This document shows, piece after piece, positions 20,901 through 28,400 of a DNA stretch of 64,000 nucleotides; the stretch's first letter is position 1; every line of letters begins with the position of its first letter. The notes beneath the pieces were generated by a model. The model was not told where the DNA came from, searched no databases, and saw only the letters and a program-made list of their open reading frames with translations. Location: contig JAUIKU010000001.1 in NCBI GenBank assembly GCA_030430675.1, positions 4,152-68,151 of the forward strand, in the 5' to 3' direction. The position numbers and the translations under genes were made by a program. This DNA comes from Bacteroidia bacterium. GTDB taxonomy: Bacteria > Bacteroidota > Bacteroidia > Cytophagales > Cyclobacteriaceae.

Positions 20901-21878
20901 ACTGATGCCAATGGGATTGCTCATTACCAGGTTGACCTAGACCAGACCTTTAACAAAAATATAGATGGTGGATCCACTCAGTTTACCGTTACCGGCCTGT
21001 CAGCTTCCACCGCTTACGATGTGAGGCTAAGTGCCTTTGACCCTTCGGGAAATCAATCTGCCACCTATGAGGTAACAAGTGTATCTACCGAGGCAGCAGG
21101 GGAAGAATTTACAGAGGACTTTGAAAGCGGTTTAGTTACCCCGCCTTTTGATACCAAGAATGGAGCCAACGACCCTACCTTTGGCGATGACCCTACCGAG
21201 GGCGGCAGTAATGATGTAATGATTTCCGACCTCCCGCCACCTACTACCTCATGGTCAAACATTGACCGCAGGAGCGAGATTAAGCGCACAGGGGGAACGT
21301 ATCAGGATGTGCCGGTATGGCACCCCAACGGCACCAGTTGGTCTTACCAGTTCAGGATATTTGTTCCCTCAGACCACTACTGCGACCCGGACTTTCCAGA
21401 GCTTATCGCACAGTGGCACCACAGCAATGTTAGCCCGGTCAGCGGTGGCCCGCCATTGATGATTAGAATTGAAGATTGCGAGATTAAAATAAAGTACCGC
21501 TATCAATCAACTGAAGGTGGTAGCGTGACAGAGAACACGGTAGCCTCCGGGCAAGACCTCACCTTGGATTCATGGAATTACTTTATCGTGGATGTTACCT
21601 GGGACTACTCCGGGTCGGGTTCGGTAGATGTGCATTGGGATGACGAAGGCTGGCCACTGGTGGGAGATGAGATTATAGATTACGATGGGGCTATTGGGTT
21701 TAATGACGGCGATGACCTGGGGGTAAACCAGGAGTTTGGAGTGTATAAATGGGACTTCAACAGCGCCACCGATGCCACCACATACAAAGATAACAGGGCG
21801 TCAAATTGCCCGGCCTGTGATGACAACAGGTTATTTTATTACGACGACATTACAATCCAGGAGGGGTTAGAGTTTTGA
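17982..21878 (+). CDS. 1298-aa putative lipoprotein: beta-propeller-like region + FN3-like module + C-terminal polysaccharide-lyase-like jelly roll
   Basis: A lipobox is present (…LILFSLGCDGQ). A His-rich block DDHHHPSFIVDGNGYIHYWVDMH is present. The FN3-like segment reads …TSLTFDITTPSTDANGIAHYQVDLDQ…YDVRLSAFDPSGNQS. The C-terminal segment reads RSEIKR…WSYQFRIFVP…IAQWHH…PPLMIRIE. Confidence 0.6.
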   Translation: MSMIRILTILILFSLGCDGQSRVGFIIAAKKSQNPAPYVEPGQESGMSWPELVAPTSPVTLSASDEDTDNDVLGVITDNENTSEWVPINRYLRVASYKDSVYVSYVDDANLRPKIGVVHVDGGSVTTDFVDKDETGWSVNDDDHHHPSFIVDGNGYIHYWVDMHVYPQSNDSHLPAARLDEEIMWYMSDNPQDISSFTFMGTLDAVEAPQGWGWSYLYPFLTQDRVLLFKARSAPWSTNDTENTGDYTFPGGAGLSMYKWNGSTWTGLGNPPDDLTNGAGTRYGTYPMIFQANYGEENQPPGESDPLDQFYNSIFHYPRVTFDNKIVAIQAINKDFEIADASTILYGHSWDLGESWLSWNGDTLTTPISSNSIPGIPAQMDGGNHTGVDGKGNPYVSWTAASPSGTYQNTKWKYYDGSSWSDSADFEPENVSRSAAWYIDANEVVSRLGTNFSSDIYRSLGEDATGYQDATLGTHFLPGEPIRGAVDHNAMFGVSWSASTSGDLQIRKVRWDLASIPSIDSEWTTTQIGTSAGSTGIWNGIYQMQSSGTGIWGDDMDLQFVHKTTTGDFDRVVRVNGIEYVSDSTFTGLMVSEELDGTGEYMAVTISNYNGLRADSRNESNVRDSVIVQDYPVIWLWLKREGDQFTVYYGHNTVTEPTLLLQKEIAMDAVVYVGIVTGSGHSSTQTHARLSRYTEIGYSQEAAQAIENIGLEDAEPWEVSAIAWAVDSLVLAGQYDAADYINRLGVTVTPANWKDGTDITEVNSPEYLQGQGYRLLADDSTAIDLNYQPSTDRNENVTYIWKGRPINNSSNDNYLWGADDGTDRAALKLNTDENNWVSYIHANGLLGQYFSIDTTNIVSVTRTYDDTTRIYKDDTEQWEKVEAFDGPVGQDIHIGALDNNGTLQHYSSQLAEWFVVGDSTLDLSVWQRVMYRTDSVYYANLGSASDETAPTTPVIAYNSGSSTSLTFDITTPSTDANGIAHYQVDLDQTFNKNIDGGSTQFTVTGLSASTAYDVRLSAFDPSGNQSATYEVTSVSTEAAGEEFTEDFESGLVTPPFDTKNGANDPTFGDDPTEGGSNDVMISDLPPPTTSWSNIDRRSEIKRTGGTYQDVPVWHPNGTSWSYQFRIFVPSDHYCDPDFPELIAQWHHSNVSPVSGGPPLMIRIEDCEIKIKYRYQSTEGGSVTENTVASGQDLTLDSWNYFIVDVTWDYSGSGSVDVHWDDEGWPLVGDEIIDYDGAIGFNDGDDLGVNQEFGVYKWDFNSATDATTYKDNRASNCPACDDNRLFYYDDITIQEGLEF

Positions 21879-22075
21879 CACAGAAAGAGCAAATACAGGA
21901 ACTTGATAAGAAGATTGGCCATATCGAAACCATACTTTTTGGGCATGACGGCAGCAACGGCATGAATGGCGATTTGAAAGAAATCAAGCGAAAGCAAACT
22001 GATATGATGATATGGGTCAGGGGTATAGCGTTGGCGGTTCCTTTTCTGCAATGGATTATTAATCATTTCCTATGA
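21875..22075 (+). CDS. Small membrane protein, holin candidate (66 aa, C-terminal TM)
   Basis: The TTG start overlaps the upstream stop. The hydrophobic C-terminus is IWVRGIALAVPFLQWIINHFL. It is the first gene of the lysis block. Confidence 0.4.
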   Translation: MTQKEQIQELDKKIGHIETILFGHDGSNGMNGDLKEIKRKQTDMMIWVRGIALAVPFLQWIINHFL

Positions 22076-22521
22076 AGCGGGCGAAGGTTAGCGGGGCATT
22101 ACTATTGATTACAGGGGTCTTATTGGGGGTTCTTATTACTTATCACCAATGCACCAGACCCTGGAAAGAAAAGTTCTATGAGTGGCAACAGAACACTTAT
22201 GGGGAGCCGGGTTATTATTCATGGTTGTGTAATCAGGTTGAAGCTGACCTAACCGATACATTCCATTATGATACCGTTTACTACTACGCTTTAGACAAGC
22301 CCAAATACCAGGAAGGGAAGATAATATTTGATGGTGACAATGTTACCTTTTCCCGGTCAGGGCAAGACTATTCTTACCATGCCGATCATAGCGGAGAAGG
22401 CTACTACTGGATATTAAAAGACGGCTACCCTACAGAGGTAATACAAAATGAGAACTCAGTAATAACCATGTCTTATGTGGCGGGTTACCCGCAATTGGAC
22501 ACTATAATCATTTATCACTGA
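22072..22521 (+). CDS. N-terminally membrane-anchored protein of the lysis block
   Basis: It has an ATGA overlap with the upstream gene and a TM segment GALLLITGVLLGVLITY. Confidence 0.4.
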   Translation: MKRAKVSGALLLITGVLLGVLITYHQCTRPWKEKFYEWQQNTYGEPGYYSWLCNQVEADLTDTFHYDTVYYYALDKPKYQEGKIIFDGDNVTFSRSGQDYSYHADHSGEGYYWILKDGYPTEVIQNENSVITMSYVAGYPQLDTIIIYH

Positions 22522-22886
22522 TGAGATTGGCCGACCATAAAACTAATGTTATCGGGGTTCACCCGGTTCTATTTTCTTACTGGTTTTTAGCAGATGAGGT
22601 TTGCCGAAAGATACTAGGCTATGAAATGATTATCACTCATTGCCTGGACGGGAAGCACATGGCGAAGTCATTGCATTATGTGGGGTTGGCATGGGATGTT
22701 AGGACGTGGACCACTCCAACAAGCGGCATTCAGATTGACCAGTATTTAAGAAGATTATTGGCTGAGACATTGCAAGAGGTTTTAGGGGATGCCTTTGATG
22801 TGGTAGAGCATGACACGCATTTACATATCGAACTGCAACCTAAGAATATTATAGAAGCAATAGAGGTGTTTAAACTATTATCATGA
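22521..22886 (+). CDS. Endolysin, LAS-type zinc peptidase (peptidase M15 family)
   Basis: The motifs are H-x6-D (SLHYVGLAWD) and H-x-H (HDTHLHIE). Size and position fit a phage lysin. Confidence 0.75.
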   Translation: MRLADHKTNVIGVHPVLFSYWFLADEVCRKILGYEMIITHCLDGKHMAKSLHYVGLAWDVRTWTTPTSGIQIDQYLRRLLAETLQEVLGDAFDVVEHDTHLHIELQPKNIIEAIEVFKLLS

Positions 22887-23080
22887 GACCGAAAAATAAA
22901 GGGCATCGAGAGCGCATAAGACAACACAAGTATAAGAAGCGAATTGAGGTTCTTGGGTTAAATCCTGGGGATTGGCAAGGGAAAAAATCGGACGCAAAAC
23001 CATGTAGTTGTTGGATGTGCAAAAACGAAAGGTATTCAAGAAAGGTAAAGCATACTATTGGAATAGAATCAATCGATTGA
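22883..23080 (+). CDS. Small basic Cys-containing protein (65 aa)
   Basis: It has an ATGA overlap with the lysin gene, is Lys/Arg-rich and carries CSCWMC. No family was recognised. Confidence 0.4.
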   Translation: MRPKNKGHRERIRQHKYKKRIEVLGLNPGDWQGKKSDAKPCSCWMCKNERYSRKVKHTIGIESID

Positions 23081-23096
23081 CCTTAAAACATTAAAT

Positions 23097-23399
23097 ATGG
23101 ACTTATTAGGATCAATAATATCAGGACTATTGGCCGGGGTGCTAATCCCATTTGGCCGAGCAGTGCAGCAAAAGTGGGCTGTTTTCAAATGGTCAATCTA
23201 TTGGAATGAAAACAAGTATAGACTAGCATGGGGGTTTTTATGCTCGGTAACTGCGGTATTGGCAACATGGTCACTCACACCAGAATCAATTAAGCAGATG
23301 GTAGATGTTTACAAGGGTGCTTTATTTGTGGCAGCAGCCAGCCCGGTAACCGTACTAAGTTTCCTGATAAAGAAGAATACACCAAAGGACAGTGACTAG
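23097..23399 (+). CDS. Small multi-TM membrane protein (holin-like)
   Basis: Three hydrophobic segments occur in 100 aa, followed by a charged C-terminus. Confidence 0.45.
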   Translation: MDLLGSIISGLLAGVLIPFGRAVQQKWAVFKWSIYWNENKYRLAWGFLCSVTAVLATWSLTPESIKQMVDVYKGALFVAAASPVTVLSFLIKKNTPKDSD

Positions 23400-23685
23400 C
23401 CTTAAAAAGACATTAGATAACCTGGAAAATCATATCAGGTCATCAAACAATATCACTAAAAGCAGAAAGATGAATATCAAGGGAGTTTTTGAGTATTTTG
23501 ATTTGGCCGCAATTTTTAAGCTAGCGGCAGTAGTGTTATTTATTGACCTTTCCTTTACAGCAAAGGTTGGTATAGTTATAGCTATTGGATTGTTTCTGGT
23601 GCATACCGGATACAAGCGGTATAAGCTAAAGAAAGCATCTTCAGTAGTTAGTAGCGAGGTGCCAAGTAAGGCGTTTAAGAACTAG
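23392..23685 (+). CDS. Small membrane protein (97 aa)
   Basis: It overlaps the upstream gene by 8 nt and has two adjacent hydrophobic segments. Confidence 0.4.
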   Translation: MTSLKKTLDNLENHIRSSNNITKSRKMNIKGVFEYFDLAAIFKLAAVVLFIDLSFTAKVGIVIAIGLFLVHTGYKRYKLKKASSVVSSEVPSKAFKN

Positions 23686-23686
23686 C

Positions 23687-24571
23687 ATGGCGTTGTACAA
23701 GGGCCGTGAGCTTTGGCGCAATGTTCACGAGGTAGAGATACCCGATGTAAGGAAAAAGGATAACCCTTTAGACCTGTTTCTTTGCTCGGATGTCCACATG
23801 GAGAGTAAGAAGTGTGATCTTGATTTATTCATTAAGCACTTAGATGAAGCGAAGCGCAAGGGGGCATTGATAGCAATCATTGGTGACCTGTTCGATTTAA
23901 TGGAGGGACGGTATGACCCCCGAAGCAACAAGGGGGTATTGAATGAGGAGATAGTGAAACTCTCAGTAGACAATAGCATTCCTTATTTGAGCGCAGTGGT
24001 AGAGTGGGCGTTTAGAATACTTGAGCCGTACGCTGAGAACATCTGTTTGATAGGAAAGGGTAACCATGAAACCAATATCGAAAAGCGGGCAGAGTTCGAT
24101 TTAATAAATGCCCTGGTACACCGGCTGAACATGGTCAGTAATACACAGGTATTTCGTGGCGGTTATTCAGGATATTTAAAATTCAAGATGCCTAAAACCG
24201 GCACTCCATGGTTATCCTATCTGGTGAAGTACCACCACGGGTTTGGTGGAGCCAAGCGAAGCAAGGGAAGTTTAAACGTGGATCTCAACGCCGCTAATTG
24301 GCCAAGTGCCGATTTAGTTATTACCGGGCACACACACCACAAATGGATAATTCCAAAGCAACGTGAAATTCTCACGCAATACGGAAAGCTGACCAATACC
24401 GTGCAGTACCATATCTGTTTAGGAGGTTACAAAAATGACGTTGAGGATGGTTACGGTGGTTGGGCTGTGGAGCGTGGTTTTGAATCACTGGCATTAGGTG
24501 GCTGGTGGGGCAAACTATGGTTGTCCGGTCATGCGCAGAAGAATGTTTTACAGGAATGGGTTATGGCATGA
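23687..24571 (+). CDS. Calcineurin-like metallophosphoesterase
   Basis: The motifs occur in the canonical order: CSDVH, IGDLFD, GNHE, GHTHH. Confidence 0.8.
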   Translation: MALYKGRELWRNVHEVEIPDVRKKDNPLDLFLCSDVHMESKKCDLDLFIKHLDEAKRKGALIAIIGDLFDLMEGRYDPRSNKGVLNEEIVKLSVDNSIPYLSAVVEWAFRILEPYAENICLIGKGNHETNIEKRAEFDLINALVHRLNMVSNTQVFRGGYSGYLKFKMPKTGTPWLSYLVKYHHGFGGAKRSKGSLNVDLNAANWPSADLVITGHTHHKWIIPKQREILTQYGKLTNTVQYHICLGGYKNDVEDGYGGWAVERGFESLALGGWWGKLWLSGHAQKNVLQEWVMA

Positions 24572-25143
24572 GAATGACAGATTTAATTATCATAGCGGCC
24601 ATATTGATTTTGCTGGGTGGCGGCATTGGCTGGCTAACCAATACAGATAAGGAGCGCAATAAGATTGAGCAACTTGAGCGGGCTTCACAGTTTCAACAAC
24701 AGCGTGCCGATAGTTTACATAGAGTAAACAAATCTTTATTAAGCGAACTCGCTATTAAAGAAAATGAGGCAAAACTTAAAAAGCAGGACTATGATAGTTT
24801 CAAGGTTGAGGCGAACAAGCGTATAAGTGAGCTTACACAGCAACTGGATACCGGAAAAACTTCAGCACCATTCAGGGAGTATGCCCATATCAAGGCACAG
24901 CAGATTAAGAAACTTGAATCTGCCTACGCCAATTTAGATGCCTTGAGTATCAAAAAAGACAGCATTATTCATATCCAGGCAAAGCAGATTGAGCATTTAA
25001 ATAAAGTTCTCGATTACCGGAACGAGCAGCTAAAATCTTATGAAAAGATGGTTCGCAAGAAAGAACTAGGAGGTGCCAAAGGTGTCTTATTTGCCTTGGG
25101 TGCTTTTGTTACCGGCATGGTATTAGGAATGGTTGGGCAGTAA
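24568..25143 (+). CDS. Membrane protein with N- and C-terminal TM segments flanking a coiled coil
   Basis: I prefer the ATG at 24568, which overlaps the upstream TGA (ATGA). The track starts at 24505. TM1 is LIIIAAILILLGGGIGW and TM2 is VLFALGAFVTGMVLGMV. Confidence 0.5.
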   Translation: MRMTDLIIIAAILILLGGGIGWLTNTDKERNKIEQLERASQFQQQRADSLHRVNKSLLSELAIKENEAKLKKQDYDSFKVEANKRISELTQQLDTGKTSAPFREYAHIKAQQIKKLESAYANLDALSIKKDSIIHIQAKQIEHLNKVLDYRNEQLKSYEKMVRKKELGGAKGVLFALGAFVTGMVLGMVGQ

Positions 25144-25298
25144 CCCATCCCCACTTATCACCTACCCATATTAAATACAGGGGGCCTTCCTTAATTCCCT
25201 GGATAGTACCTGTATATTCCTTCCCTTTATAGGAGAAGCGAACCGTTTGATTGACTGAATATTTGGGCATGGGTTTACCTGAAAATTTACCCTCATAT

Positions 25299-25333
25299 AT
25301 AAAAAACGCCCCATACGTTCAGTATAAGGCGTT
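25299..25333 (-). terminator. Rho-independent terminator downstream of tRNA-Gln
   Basis: On the - strand the stem is AACGCC…GGCGTT, extended by ATAC/GTAT, and is followed by TTTTTT (plus-strand A-run 25301-25306). Confidence 0.5.
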
Positions 25334-25338
25334 TATAG

Positions 25339-25411
25339 TTGCCCGACCAGGGCTCGAACCTGGACTCTTCTGAACCAAAATCAGACGTGTTGCCAGTTAC
25401 ACCATCGGGCA
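25339..25411 (-). tRNA. tRNA-Gln (anticodon UUG)
   Basis: Hand-folded cloverleaf with a 7-bp acceptor stem including U1-A72. The D stem is GTGT/ACAC and the anticodon stem is TCTGA/TCAGA. The anticodon loop is TT-TTG-GT. The T arm is CCAGG-TTCGAGC-CCTGG. No CCA is encoded. Confidence 0.9.
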
Positions 25412-25485
25412 TTCCATTTTAGAAGCACAAATGTAGAACTATTTTGACTTAAGAAAAAACAATCTTTTAATCAATTATTCTATCC

Positions 25486-28400
25486 CTACAATTGTTCTTG
25501 CTGCTGGCCGATTTGCGCTGCCACCCAATTCCGGGCATTGGCAAATGCTTCCATCCAGGGGGTAACCCGGGCGTTATCAGGCAAACCGGCTTTGTGAGCC
25601 CAGTGCCAGGGAAAGATCGATCGTTCCAGGTGTGGCATCATGGCCAGATGTCTGCCGTCTTCCGAACAGATAGCGGCGGCGTTGTATTGCGACCCGTTGG
25701 GGTTGCCTGGATATTGTTCATAACCATAAGTGGCAGCGATATGGTAGTGATTTGGTTCCATGGGAAATTGGAACTGACCTTCACCATGTGCCACCCAGAT
25801 ACCCAGTCGGGAACCAACCAGGGATCGTAACATGATACTGGGAGTTTCATGGATGTCCACACTTAAAAAGGCCGATTCGAATTTGCCCGATTGGTTATGC
25901 AGCATCCTGGGATGTTCCCGGTGTTCCGGATGGATCAATCCCAGCTCCATCATCAACTGGCAACCATTGCAGACCCCCAGGCTAAGAGTATCCGGTCTGC
26001 TGTAAAAGCTGTCCAGAGCTTCCTTAGCTTTTTCATTATAACGAAAGGCCCCTGCCCATCCCTTGGCAGACCCCAATACATCGGAATTGCTGAAGCCGCC
26101 TACAAATACGATGAAGTTGATATCTTCCAGTGTTTCACGTCCGGTTACCAAATCCGTCATATGCACATCTTTGACTTCAAATCCGGCCAGGTATAGAGAA
26201 TAAGCCATCTCACGATCACCATTGACTCCTTTTTCCCTGATAATGGCAGCCTTGCAGGGGCTGGGAGCAGTGTGCGTCGGGCTTAGTGATAAAGAAGCGT
26301 GTGTTCCGGTAAAATGATCCGGAATCCGGAAATCAAGAGGTTGCTGATTATAATTTTGATACCGTTGCCTGGCCAATTCGGGTTTGGTCTGATGCTGATC
26401 CAGCAGGTAGGATGTTTCAAACCATTGATTCCGGTATCGGTGAATATCCAGACTGTAATTTCCAGCGCCTACCTTTATTTTGGCGGTGGGTGCACCGGTG
26501 ACTTCACCGAGTATTTGATAACCTATTTCCTGCCCCTGCAAAATAGCGGCTACTTCCTGAATTTCGGATACCTGGAGAACAACCGCAGGATTTTCATTGA
26601 ACAGAATCTTTACTTCATCTGGTCCCAAAGAGGATAGATCAATTGAGAACCCGGTGGATACATTGGGAAATGTCATTTCCAACAGGGCTACCAGAAGGCC
26701 ACCTTCACTTACATCATGTCCTGCTAACACCAGGCCCTCCAATATCAATTGCTGTACCGCCGTAAACCCGCGTTTGAAATAATTGATATCCGATATATCG
26801 GGAGTGGAACCTCCCAGTTGGTTTAACACCTGTCCTAAACTGGATCCTCCCAAATTATGGGGGCAAGACGACAGGTCGATATAGACCAACTTGCTATGTT
26901 CTGCGTGCTTTAGTTCCGGGGTGACCACCCGGGTAATGTCACTTACTTCGGAACAAGCTGAAACGATCACGGTTCCGGGTGCCGGCACGGTGGTACCATC
27001 GGGATATTTTTGCTTAAGGCTTAGGGAGTCTTTTCCGGTGGGGACGTTTATTCCCAGCTGGCAAGCCATATCGCTAAGGGCTTTCACCGCGCTGTATAGC
27101 CGCGCATCTTCGCCATCGGATTTTGCCGGCCACATCCAGTTGGCACTCAGGGATACTCCTGCTAATCCATTGGATAACGGGGCCCAGACCAGGTTGGTTA
27201 ATGCCTCAGCTACGGAGAGCCGGGATCCTGCCGCCGCATCCAATAACGCGGGTACCGGGGCATGGCCTATTGAGGTGGCTACACCTTTATTGCCGGCATA
27301 ATCCAAGGCCGCTACTCCCAGGTTGTTAAGTGGCAATTGTAGGGCACCGGTGGTTTGTTGCAGAGCTACCTTGCCAGTTACGGAGCGGTCCACCTTATTG
27401 GTAAGCCAGTCTTTACAACCTACACTTTCCAGTTGCAGTACCATTGAAAGATATGATTCAATTTTATCCGGTTCATAAGATAACGGAGTGAAATTGCTCT
27501 CCCGTGTTTTATCATTCAACACTGTTTTGGGAGAGCTGCCGAACAGATGTTTGAGCTCCATGTCCATGGGGTTCGGCGGGTTTTTCGACTCGAACTTCAG
27601 ATGATGATCTCCGGTTATTTCACCTACCTGATAGATAGGGGCCCGCTCTCTTTCTGATACCGTTCTCAGCAAATCCACATCCTGTGATTTAAGTACCAGT
27701 CCCATGCGCTCCTGGCTTTCATTGCCCACAATTTCTTTGGCGCTCAGGGTAGGATCGCCCACCGGTAATTTATCCATGGAAATGGTGCCCCCTGTATCTT
27801 CGACCAGTTCCGAGAGACAGTTGAGATGCCCACCGGCACCATGGTCGTGTATGGATACAATGGGATTTGAATCACTTTCGGCCATGGCCCGGATGGCGTT
27901 GGCCACTCTTTTTTGCATTTCCGGATTGGCCCGTTGTACCGCATTTAACTCCAGGCTGTGATGGTATTCACCGGTAGCTACGGAGCTAACCGCGCCACCA
28001 CCCATACCAATGCGATAGTTATCGCCTCCCAGTACTATGATCTGATCACCTTTATGCGGGTGGTCTTTCCTGCTATGATTGGCATTGGCAAATCCGATGC
28101 CACCGGCCAGCATAATCACTTTGTCATAGCCTGTAATCTGATCCTGACCCTGGTGTTCGAAGGTCAATACACTGCCGCATATTAGCGGCTGACCAAACTT
28201 GTTGCCAAAGTCGCTGGCACCATTAGAGGCCTTGATCAACAGGTCCAAAGGTGTCTGGTAGCGCCAGCTTCTGGCGGGGATCTTAGATTCCCATGGCTTG
28301 GGCTGGCTCAGGCGGCTATAAGGTGTCATGTAAACCGCAGTACCCGCCAGAGGGATACTGGCCTTTCCTCCCGCCAACCGATCCCTGATTTCACCTCCGG

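Follow-up and report, generated by a model that had tools for sequence, protein, structure and literature searches.

Why does a prophage keep a gene for a metallophosphoesterase (MPE) at its end, behind a candidate endolysin and next to the attachment (att) site? This question is raised by a stretch of 64,000 nucleotides (nt) from a Bacteroidia bacterium of the family Cyclobacteriaceae (GenBank assembly GCA_030430675.1, contig JAUIKU010000001.1, positions 4152–68151), hereafter called the window. Five genes are located at positions 22883–25143 of the window, and one of them encodes an MPE of 294 amino acids (aa). An earlier note on this DNA described these 2.3 kb as an accessory block of moron type that follows the lysin. 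Here, the MPE is assigned to an uncharacterised phage-specific clade, of which it is a predicted intact member, and the conserved place of this clade is the end of the lysis operon.

The Metallophosphoesterase and Its Family

The MPE matches the Pfam family Metallophos (PF00149) with E = 2.4e-7 and 31.8 bits, against a curated cut-off of 21.5 bits, and it matches phrog_7339 with E = 2e-16. The calcineurin-like active site reported in the earlier note is confirmed, with one motif added to the four listed there. The five motifs, D35xH37, G66D67, G125N126H127(E), H184, and G214HxH217, are invariant in alignments of 29 and 38 relatives. The active site is predicted to be catalytically intact.

An AlphaFold2 (AF2) model based on the family alignment reached pLDDT 91 and pTM 0.90. 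All significant Foldseek matches of this model are MPEs, which places the protein in the superfamily by its beta-sandwich alpha/beta fold. A search of BFVD returned H9YSH0 (TM-score 0.88, 38% identity) and other uncharacterised phage MPEs. The best matches in PDB are the PolD DP1 exonuclease, LpxH, Vps29, and Mre11, with TM-scores of 0.3–0.5. Besides the metal-binding motifs, the family has its own invariant residues: M72, D77, R79, R86, E88, Y100, Y248, K249, and a Gly-rich loop after H184. They fall in low-confidence loops of the AF2 model, which are presumably flexible, and these residues may be located at the active site and suit an anionic substrate. An N-terminal hydrophobic segment is absent from all 258 relatives inspected; in one of them, the threshold is exceeded by a single internal window. 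The MPE is thereby predicted to be a soluble, single-domain protein without a signal peptide.

The family is large. A word-indexed search found 108 homologues of ~280 aa with 32–65% identity, and at least 588 contigs of IMG/VR carry a relative. Exhaustive HMMER searches yielded 4018 clusters at 50% identity with E ≤ 1e-3, 2312 with E ≤ 1e-10, and 1029 with E ≤ 1e-30. Nearly all cluster members are single-domain proteins, and their median length is 289 aa. Among GTDB species genomes, 12 matches were obtained. Most of them belong to Flavobacteriaceae, Saprospiraceae, Chitinophagaceae, Methylococcus, alphaproteobacteria, and Verrucomicrobium; one is a Bacillales metagenome-assembled genome (MAG), and one is an "archaeon" MAG with two contigs. 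The genome of the window is the only one among 301 genomes of the host's order that contains the MPE. The window protein forms a long branch: it is at most 47% identical to the sampled loci, and its best database match shows 65% identity. Judging from these sequences, the clade is large, phage-specific, and without a characterised member. PHROG 7339 is labelled "DNA repair exonuclease" by annotation transfer, and none of its members has been characterised. WBK39924.1 from Rhodobacteraceae phage LS06-2018-MD07, which is 34% identical to the window MPE, is recorded as a hypothetical protein.

Inteins with Hint and LAGLIDADG domains extend seven of the 150 best MPE cluster representatives to 598–653 aa (P0122, P0124, P0134, P0159, P0185, P0211, and P0236). 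Four of the inteins are inserted exactly after GNHE of motif III, that is, before T129 of the window protein. The other three are inserted further downstream, near motif V. The presence of inteins at two catalytic motifs indicates that the MPE is a strongly constrained enzyme. Apart from the inteins and one weak helix-turn-helix extension, no fusion was seen among these 150 representatives, and in particular none to wall-binding, membrane-binding, or lysin domains.

Conserved Place of the MPE Gene

The genomic neighbourhood was surveyed in 96 loci: 80 IMG/VR contigs, one cultured roseophage, two Logan contigs, 12 genome contigs, and the window. Neighbours were classed by open reading frame (ORF) calling, Pfam, and local profiles. 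An endolysin domain is encoded on the same strand within 500 nt of the MPE in 48 of the 96 loci and within 1.5 kb in 53, and it lies upstream of the MPE in 49 of these 53. For a random gene in a phage with 40–60 genes, adjacency to the endolysin is expected by chance at ~4%, a value that was reasoned and not derived from a computed control. The adjoining endolysins represent some ten unrelated families: Peptidase_M15_3, Amidase_2, two GH24 types, GH25, GH108, GH19-like, M15_4/VanY, CHAP, and the candidate LAS-type peptidase of the window. The median distance from the upstream gene to the MPE is 1 nt, and 81% of these gaps measure at most 25 nt; of the downstream gaps, 37% measure at least 70 nt. 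Short upstream gaps and often long downstream gaps indicate that the MPE is typically the last or penultimate gene of its operon.

When the MPEs are arranged in a maximum likelihood tree, the half that contains the window has 48 rows, and 41 of them are adjacent to an endolysin. The family of the adjoining endolysin switches at least 15 times on the tree, even inside a clade with 99% support. These switches indicate that the adjacency of MPE and endolysin has outlasted repeated replacement of the endolysin. The MPE of relatives is usually found inside the endolysin operon, which does not support the view of an accessory block behind it.

Several facts weigh against an exclusive link with lysis. 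The sample is biased: its 80 viral loci, being those that match the query best, are related to one another and do not count as phylogenetically independent. In the other half of the tree, 36 of the 48 loci have no recognised endolysin nearby. At the loci without an endolysin, the MPE is placed by capsid or portal genes, genes for giant virion proteins, RusA or PDDEXK nucleases, or SprT-like proteins. The link may be with the "late region or operon end" and not with lysis itself. The general statement judged safest is that the MPE is a predicted late gene whose usual place is the end of the lysis operon.

The neighbouring recombination genes and the inteins bring to mind gp47 of mycobacteriophage Bxb1, an MPE-fold protein that is required for replicating the DNA and also serves as a recombination directionality factor (RDF). 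By the logic of RDFs, the window MPE, whose gene lies near att, could be a replication or recombination factor of the same kind. Both are phage MPEs hosting inteins at catalytic motifs, and the MPE borders recombination genes (RusA, PDDEXK, and RecE/RecT) in several loci. It has been reported that mycobacteriophage RDFs are calcineurin-like MPEs with inteins at a conserved MPE motif (PMC5050341). Nevertheless, this origin of the function is very unlikely. A tblastn search against 50,697 phage records returned no mycobacteriophage at E ≤ 1e-3, and no sequence link with gp47 is detectable. The gp47 gene is in the early arm of Bxb1, whereas the MPE gene is at the end of the lysis operon, and so close a tie with the endolysin and with the late operon speaks against an early or replication role. 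RDFs of the gp47 type serve serine integrases, whereas the integrase fragments associated with the window read as tyrosine-type. The sampled viral contigs show no sign of lysogeny, with integrases not included in the search.

Even in the distant Bacillus phage Staley, whose protein is 24% identical, the order is MPE-HNH-endolysin. In the prophage of Flagellimonas sp. SN16, a gene resembling HNH/AP2-type homing endonucleases by eye (L087:6013-6675) is situated between an M15-like endolysin and the MPE. The roseophage MPE also comes after an endolysin, a hypothetical protein, a membrane protein, and a double-anchored coiled-coil protein.

Three further groups of neighbours were observed. One family of 88–155 aa directly follows the MPE in at least 13 loci (L004, L005, L007, L008, L010-L012, L018, L031, L032, L035, L084, and L085). 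It has a basic disordered N-terminus, the motif RWSAKRTVGG, and a C-terminal transmembrane segment, and by appearance it is a tail-anchored membrane protein. The second is a protein of ~90 aa with an HExxH motif, encoded directly after the MPE in eight loci (L002, L003, L030, L039-L041, L044, and L046). It shows a weak match to the Pfam SprT-like family (E = 1.1e-3), and six of the eight loci (L030, L039-L041, L044, and L046) are without a recognised endolysin nearby. The third consists of two N-anchored proteins of 170 and 213 aa, encoded beside the endolysin at L002:5492-6004 and by the gene two before the MPE in L057. They appear beta-rich by eye, and their C-termini, GLAIKIK and GAAFKIK, are alike. 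They may represent another class of envelope-disrupting lysis proteins in phages of Bacteroidota-like hosts.

The Putative Lysis Operon of the Window

All five genes of 22883–25143 are present on the forward strand according to the ORF listing and the hydropathy scan, and their junctions are mostly overlaps or 1-nt gaps. The gene models proposed in the earlier note, including a small basic Cys protein and two small membrane proteins, are therefore retained. The eight genes at 21875–25143 (Table 1) probably constitute one late lysis operon, of which the 2.3 kb in question are the distal half. The operon would encode, in this order, a tail-anchored 66-aa protein, an N-anchored 149-aa protein, a candidate LAS-type peptidase, a small basic protein, holin-like proteins with three and two transmembrane segments, the MPE, and a double-anchored coiled-coil protein. 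The gene for the 97-aa membrane protein overlaps that for the 100-aa protein by 8 nt, and its stop codon is 1 nt ahead of the MPE start. At the other end, the MPE stop codon (24569–24571) overlaps the next ATG (24568), so that the ATGA coupling described earlier is seen at 24568–24571. In the window's branch of the family, the MPE gene as a rule comes directly after the endolysin, regardless of the endolysin family, and it is predicted to be co-translated with its upstream gene. These features suggest a late gene tied to the lysis cassette and not an independently expressed moron.

As a lysogenic-conversion moron, the MPE and the membrane protein would be expressed from the prophage and give the host some advantage or protection, such as superinfection exclusion. 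The end of the prophage beside att is the classic slot for such genes, and the GC content here (0.41–0.44) is slightly lower than that of the structural genes. Against this stand the 1-nt gap and the ATGA overlap, which tie the genes to their neighbours, as well as the conserved synteny with endolysins and the overwhelmingly viral distribution of the family, with its 12 matches in GTDB species genomes and its single occurrence in the host's order. The block is, by its gene junctions, translationally coupled to holin-like membrane proteins, and the N-terminal anchor and coiled coil of its last protein are i-spanin-like. No separate promoter or terminator signal was revealed by scanning: a sigma-70-like scan, which does not cover Bacteroidota promoters, counted 6 promoter-like sites in 21500–25500 against 9.6 expected from shuffles. 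A moron is hardly credible here.

The presence of an endolysin upstream, which the earlier note took for granted, is upheld only at the level of a candidate. The 121-aa protein was aligned by hhalign with the Peptidase_M15_3 endolysins of related loci at E = 1.4e-3 and a probability of 18%. Zinc motifs of LAS or Peptidase M15 enzymes are H-x(3-6)-D and H-x-H. In the alignment, the motifs SxHxxGxAxD (SLHYVGLAWD) and HxH (HLH) of the 121-aa protein are matched, and the spacing of the first is H-x6-D. Weak, non-significant matches in PDB (E about 1.4) are to the hedgehog N-domain, which is a LAS fold. Neither Pfam nor PHROG gave a match, a homologue search returned the query alone, and the single-sequence AF2 model is unusable (pLDDT 45). 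The weak assignment of this candidate endolysin counts against the interpretation of the cassette as a lysis operon.

The remaining small proteins are poorly connected with known families. The architecture of the 66-aa protein recurs beside endolysins in related loci, such as two genes before the MPE in L084 and in family f13, while its sequence matches no family in Pfam or PHROG. The 149-aa protein has no significant match in these two databases, and the 65-aa protein has none in Pfam, PHROG, or PADLOC. The 100-aa protein has no family match either; its third hydrophobic stretch, at ~44–60, was judged by eye in addition to the two segments of the scan.

Table 1. Genes of the putative lysis operon and features of the adjoining att region, in window coordinates.
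Feature	Position	Strand	Description
66-aa protein	21875..22075	+	First cassette gene; N-terminal helical part, C-terminal transmembrane segment 44-62; holin-like or tail-anchored lysis protein
149-aa protein	22072..22521	+	N-terminal anchor, transmembrane segment 6-24; ATGA-type overlap with both neighbours
121-aa protein	22521..22886	+	Candidate LAS-type (M15-like) zinc peptidase, presumed endolysin; hhalign and motifs
65-aa basic protein	22883..23080	+	pI 10.1; CSCWMC motif; start overlaps stop of 121-aa gene
100-aa membrane protein	23097..23399	+	Transmembrane segments 1-19 and 73-91 in hydropathy scan, ~3 in total; charged C-terminal tail; holin-like
97-aa membrane protein	23392..23685	+	Transmembrane segments 33-51 and 53-71; charged C-terminal tail; holin- or antiholin-like
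294-aa MPE	23687..24571	+	Soluble metallophosphoesterase; Pfam PF00149, phrog_7339
191-aa protein	24568..25143	+	Last cassette gene; transmembrane segments 6-24 and 172-190; spanin-like candidate
53-aa ORF	25109..25270	-	Between lysis operon and att; overlaps last 35 nt of 191-aa gene
Terminator-like hairpin	25304..25334	-	Directly past 3' end of tRNA-Gln, on phage side of att core
att core, 18 bp	25337..25354	.	Spans 3' end of tRNA-Gln
tRNA-Gln(UUG)	25338..25411	-	Integration target; ARAGORN; 3' end points towards phage

Possible Functions of the MPE

The reading favoured here, tentatively, is that the MPE could be a phosphodiesterase of the Mn/Fe type whose substrate, late in the cycle, would be nucleic acid or a compound derived from nucleotides. 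It might be a DNase or an exonuclease by which host DNA or unpackaged DNA is removed during or after lysis. The basis of this reading is the remote fold likeness to PolD DP1 and Mre11, together with the analogy with other predicted nuclease-type phage MPEs, such as A1 of phage T5. PolD DP1 and Mre11/SbcD are top structural neighbours and share motifs of the GDLFD and GNHE types with the window MPE. They differ from it in that the MPE lacks a capping or OB domain and a Rad50/SbcC partner, and the TM-scores are 0.37–0.49. T5 A1, reportedly 556 aa long, is the product of a pre-early gene, unlike the MPE at the end of the lysis operon. It is a predicted metallophosphatase likened to nucleases of double-strand break repair and proofreading, and its nuclease activity is a prediction only (10.64898/2026.04.02.716235). 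Two facts weigh against a nucleic acid or nucleotide substrate. The PDB fold matches are weak (TM-score ≤ 0.5) and include non-nucleases, and the sole signal at the sequence level points to LpxH, far below the cut-off.

Two enzyme types named in the earlier note were rejected. The first is the protein phosphatase of the lambda-PPase kind. PPP phosphatases are characterised by the signatures GDxHG, GDxVDRG, and GNHE, and by a single His in the last motif. In the window MPE, motif I is SDVHME, motif II is GDLFDLM, and the last motif is GHTH, and no PPP enzyme is found in the top 50 PDB fold matches. The second is the nuclease subunit of the Mre11/SbcD type. The MPE is a single domain of 294 aa without a capping domain, the cassette contains no gene for a Rad50/SbcC ATPase, and the TM-scores with Mre11 are 0.36–0.38.

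LpxH was also rejected as the identity of the MPE. The two proteins share the MPE fold, and the N-terminal 60 residues align from motif I to the GDLFDxM/W-G segment. The scores are 23.1 bits against a cut-off of 190 for TIGR01854 and 19.5 against 134 for NF003743. The former is ~8-fold under the equivalog cut-off, and residues 30–94 alone align. LpxH has an acyl-chain-binding helical lid between motifs IV and V, and its motif III is GNRD. In the window MPE, motif III is GNHE, and H184 and H215 are 31 residues apart with one short helix, which leaves no room for a lid. Its insertions are instead between motifs II and III and between motifs III and IV. It is also phage-encoded and predicted to be late.

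A more distant relation with LpxH is the starting point for another explanation. The MPE could be an auxiliary lysis enzyme, an LpxH-like pyrophosphatase or phosphodiesterase that stops envelope synthesis or weakens membranes at lysis. The substrate would be a membrane phospholipid or an envelope precursor linked to a nucleotide or a lipid, namely UDP-MurNAc-pentapeptide, lipid II, or UDP-diacylglucosamine. Such a role is consistent with the lasting association with endolysins from many families, and the lack of a signal peptide is compatible with exit through holin holes, as in canonical endolysins. LpxH is the only family that gives a sequence signal: TIGR01854 and NF003743 match 6 and 12 of the 38 members, respectively, at residues 30–94. 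Searches of PDB sequences with the single protein and the family profile gave only insignificant matches, to the N-terminal part of LpxH. LpxH is also among the top fold matches, and some homologues are named LpxH by JGI. Still, an auxiliary lysis enzyme seems unlikely. The scores are far under the curated cut-offs, the stretch between motifs IV and V is short just where LpxH would have its lid, and fusions to wall- or membrane-binding domains are absent from the 150 best cluster representatives. Moreover, many relatives are located away from lysis genes, and some apparently belong to phages of monoderm hosts, as suggested by multidomain GH25 lysins and the Bacillales MAG.

The intact phosphodiesterase active site predicted for the MPE would also suit an anti-defence enzyme. 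It would degrade an immune signal (cGAMP, cA3, cUMP/cCMP, or gcADPR) or NAD-derived molecules. Its production would coincide with that of the late proteins by which CBASS, Pycsar, Thoeris, or Avs-type systems are triggered; alternatively, it would be packaged and injected. Many abortive-infection systems respond to late proteins, and some relatives of the MPE adjoin genes for giant virion proteins or head genes. The invariant R79, R86, Y248, and K249 and the Gly-rich loop, read as near the active site, would fit a small anionic ligand, and cellular genomes rarely carry this phage-specific family. However, anti-defence genes tend to be found in early or accessory regions and to vary between close relatives, whereas the MPE gene is syntenic with the endolysin gene and coupled to it. 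To our knowledge, no known anti-defence phosphodiesterase (Acb1, Apyc1, or ring nucleases) has the MPE fold. PADLOC gave no match for the seven cassette proteins scanned, in a scan without a library of anti-defence proteins, and no other match was obtained. For the class III phosphodiesterases CpdA and Rv0805, there is no NCBIfam or Pfam subfamily match and no representative in the top 50 fold matches; as all solved MPEs are equally remote, an activity of this kind may nevertheless be present. An anti-defence function is considered improbable.

The 191-aa Terminal Protein

The last gene of the operon encodes a protein of 191 aa, for which the double anchoring and the coiled coil reported earlier are supported (Table 1). 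The start codon is ambiguous: GTG at 24505 or ATG at 24556, 24568, or 24574, and the N-terminal transmembrane segment is kept in each case. By heuristic secondary structure prediction, the middle part is helical and rich in K, E, Q, and L, with a Gly/Pro break at about 95–101. The C-terminal hydrophobic segment is Gly-rich. With chances close to even, this protein, a candidate non-canonical spanin, might act in lysis at the step that involves the outer membrane. In this case, the N-terminal segment would be anchored in the inner membrane, the hinged coiled coil would cross the periplasm, and the Gly-rich C-terminal segment would enter the second membrane.

Comparison with known spanins gives a mixed picture. 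The N-terminal transmembrane segment and the two helical segments joined by a linker resemble lambda Rz, and in these respects the protein looks like an i-spanin of the Rz type; a cognate o-spanin was not found. Weak matches to Rz-like spanins were obtained in PHROG (phrog_739, E = 1.6e-3; phrog_214, E = 3.9e-3). The hydrophobic anchors at both ends and the absence of a periplasmic Cys are reminiscent of the u-spanin gp11 of phage T1 (PMC6139136). The architecture of u-spanins consists of a lipobox and a C-terminal transmembrane segment (PMC6139136). The 191-aa protein shares with them the C-terminal segment and the position as the last gene of the cassette, and it lacks the lipobox Cys. The periplasmic part of u-spanins is beta-rich (PMC6139136), whereas that of the 191-aa protein is alpha-helical.

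Several observations speak against a spanin. The protein is an orphan without a homologue in 5.8 billion proteins. It contains no lipobox and no Cys at all, and no ORF for an o-spanin or a lipobox protein is found in any frame on the forward strand of 21700–25340. It thus differs from both Rz and u-spanins in lacking a lipobox, an o-spanin partner, and detectable homology. The PHROG matches are marginal and could mirror the composition of coiled coils.

The earlier note paired the MPE with this membrane protein, proposed to look for their co-conservation, and named a lack of it as refuting its own reading. Since the 191-aa gene has no detectable homologue, the gene pair is not conserved by sequence. 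Similar architectures are seen beside other MPEs. Proteins with a lipobox and a C-terminal transmembrane segment are encoded two genes before the MPE in L020 and directly after it in L062 and in L087, the prophage of Flagellimonas sp. SN16. Coiled-coil proteins with an N-terminal signal or transmembrane segment and a C-terminal transmembrane segment are found in the roseophage and in L070. Five double-anchored proteins are encoded within three genes of an MPE, four of them in loci other than the window. With only five such cases, a double-anchored partner is not a trait of the family.

Implications for Phage Lysis

Lysis of diderm hosts is taught as three steps, carried out by holin, endolysin, and spanin. 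It can be speculated, with considerable reserve, that in many uncultured aquatic phages the lysis cassette has a fourth, enzymatic and non-membrane part, an MPE that is co-translated with the endolysin and required for efficient host destruction or virion release. In the window, it would be accompanied by an alpha-helical unimolecular spanin that bridges both membranes without a lipid anchor. The target of such a component might be an envelope precursor or a lipid; alternatively, it might remove DNA when the cell lyses.

The MPE has stayed next to the endolysin through at least 15 exchanges of the endolysin family, it is found in more than 1000 clusters at 50% identity, and it harbours inteins at catalytic motifs. 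These facts suggest an unrecognised late function. This function could be lysis itself, the clearing of nucleic acids for virion release, or the countering of late-triggered immunity. Should the MPE prove to be an ordinary nuclease, a very common phage gene would simply be better annotated. The 191-aa orphan is an added candidate for outer-membrane disruption in phages of Bacteroidota, whose cassettes, like the present one, show no recognisable canonical spanin.

In full-text searches of the literature, an endolysin-linked MPE was nowhere described. A paper on flavophages lists a calcineurin-like phosphoesterase four ORFs after an amidase as an auxiliary metabolic gene ("AMG"), without evidence (PMC11267871).

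Host, att Site, and Assembly

Upstream of the cassette, a head-to-tail structural module encodes head morphogenesis, protease, major head, adaptor, and tape measure proteins. The phage is a siphovirus-like prophage in a Bacteroidota chromosome. The host genome contains nine SusD genes, which indicate that the host is a member of Bacteroidota and hence diderm. A megablast search of the last 11 kb of the phage against phage records gave no match.

The earlier placement of the block on the att side of the prophage holds. The integration target is a tRNA-Gln(UUG) gene, and its 3' end is spanned by the att core, AGTTGCCCGACCAGGGCT (Table 1). One further exact copy of the core is present in the assembly, on contig C182, with a terminator hairpin on the outer side and an N-terminal fragment of an integrase on the inner side. 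Contig C220, which holds the window, opens with a C-terminal fragment of an integrase (C220:1-354). The att core and its second copy beside an integrase fragment indicate that the block at 22883–25143 is the att-side end of an integrated phage.

The N-terminal integrase fragment at C182:1-1075 is ~265 aa long, closes in a stop codon, and is followed by an ABC-ATPase gene. Both integrase fragments were judged by eye to be tyrosine-type. C182 and C220 do not overlap, and the join may reflect a repeat that was collapsed, what is left of an older insertion, or a rearrangement. In the region of C220:355-1815 and window positions 1–22000, only two small ORFs are found between the integrase fragment of C220 and the small terminase gene. 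Over the ~29.5 kb that separate integrase and att, neither a repressor nor a replication module can be seen. Possibly the element is defective; alternatively, another contig may carry its early genes.

On the reverse strand between the lysis operon and att, the 53-aa ORF, which begins with MPKYSVNQTVRFSYKGKEYTG, shows a weak sub-threshold match to Pfam BPL_C and could be a real att-proximal gene.

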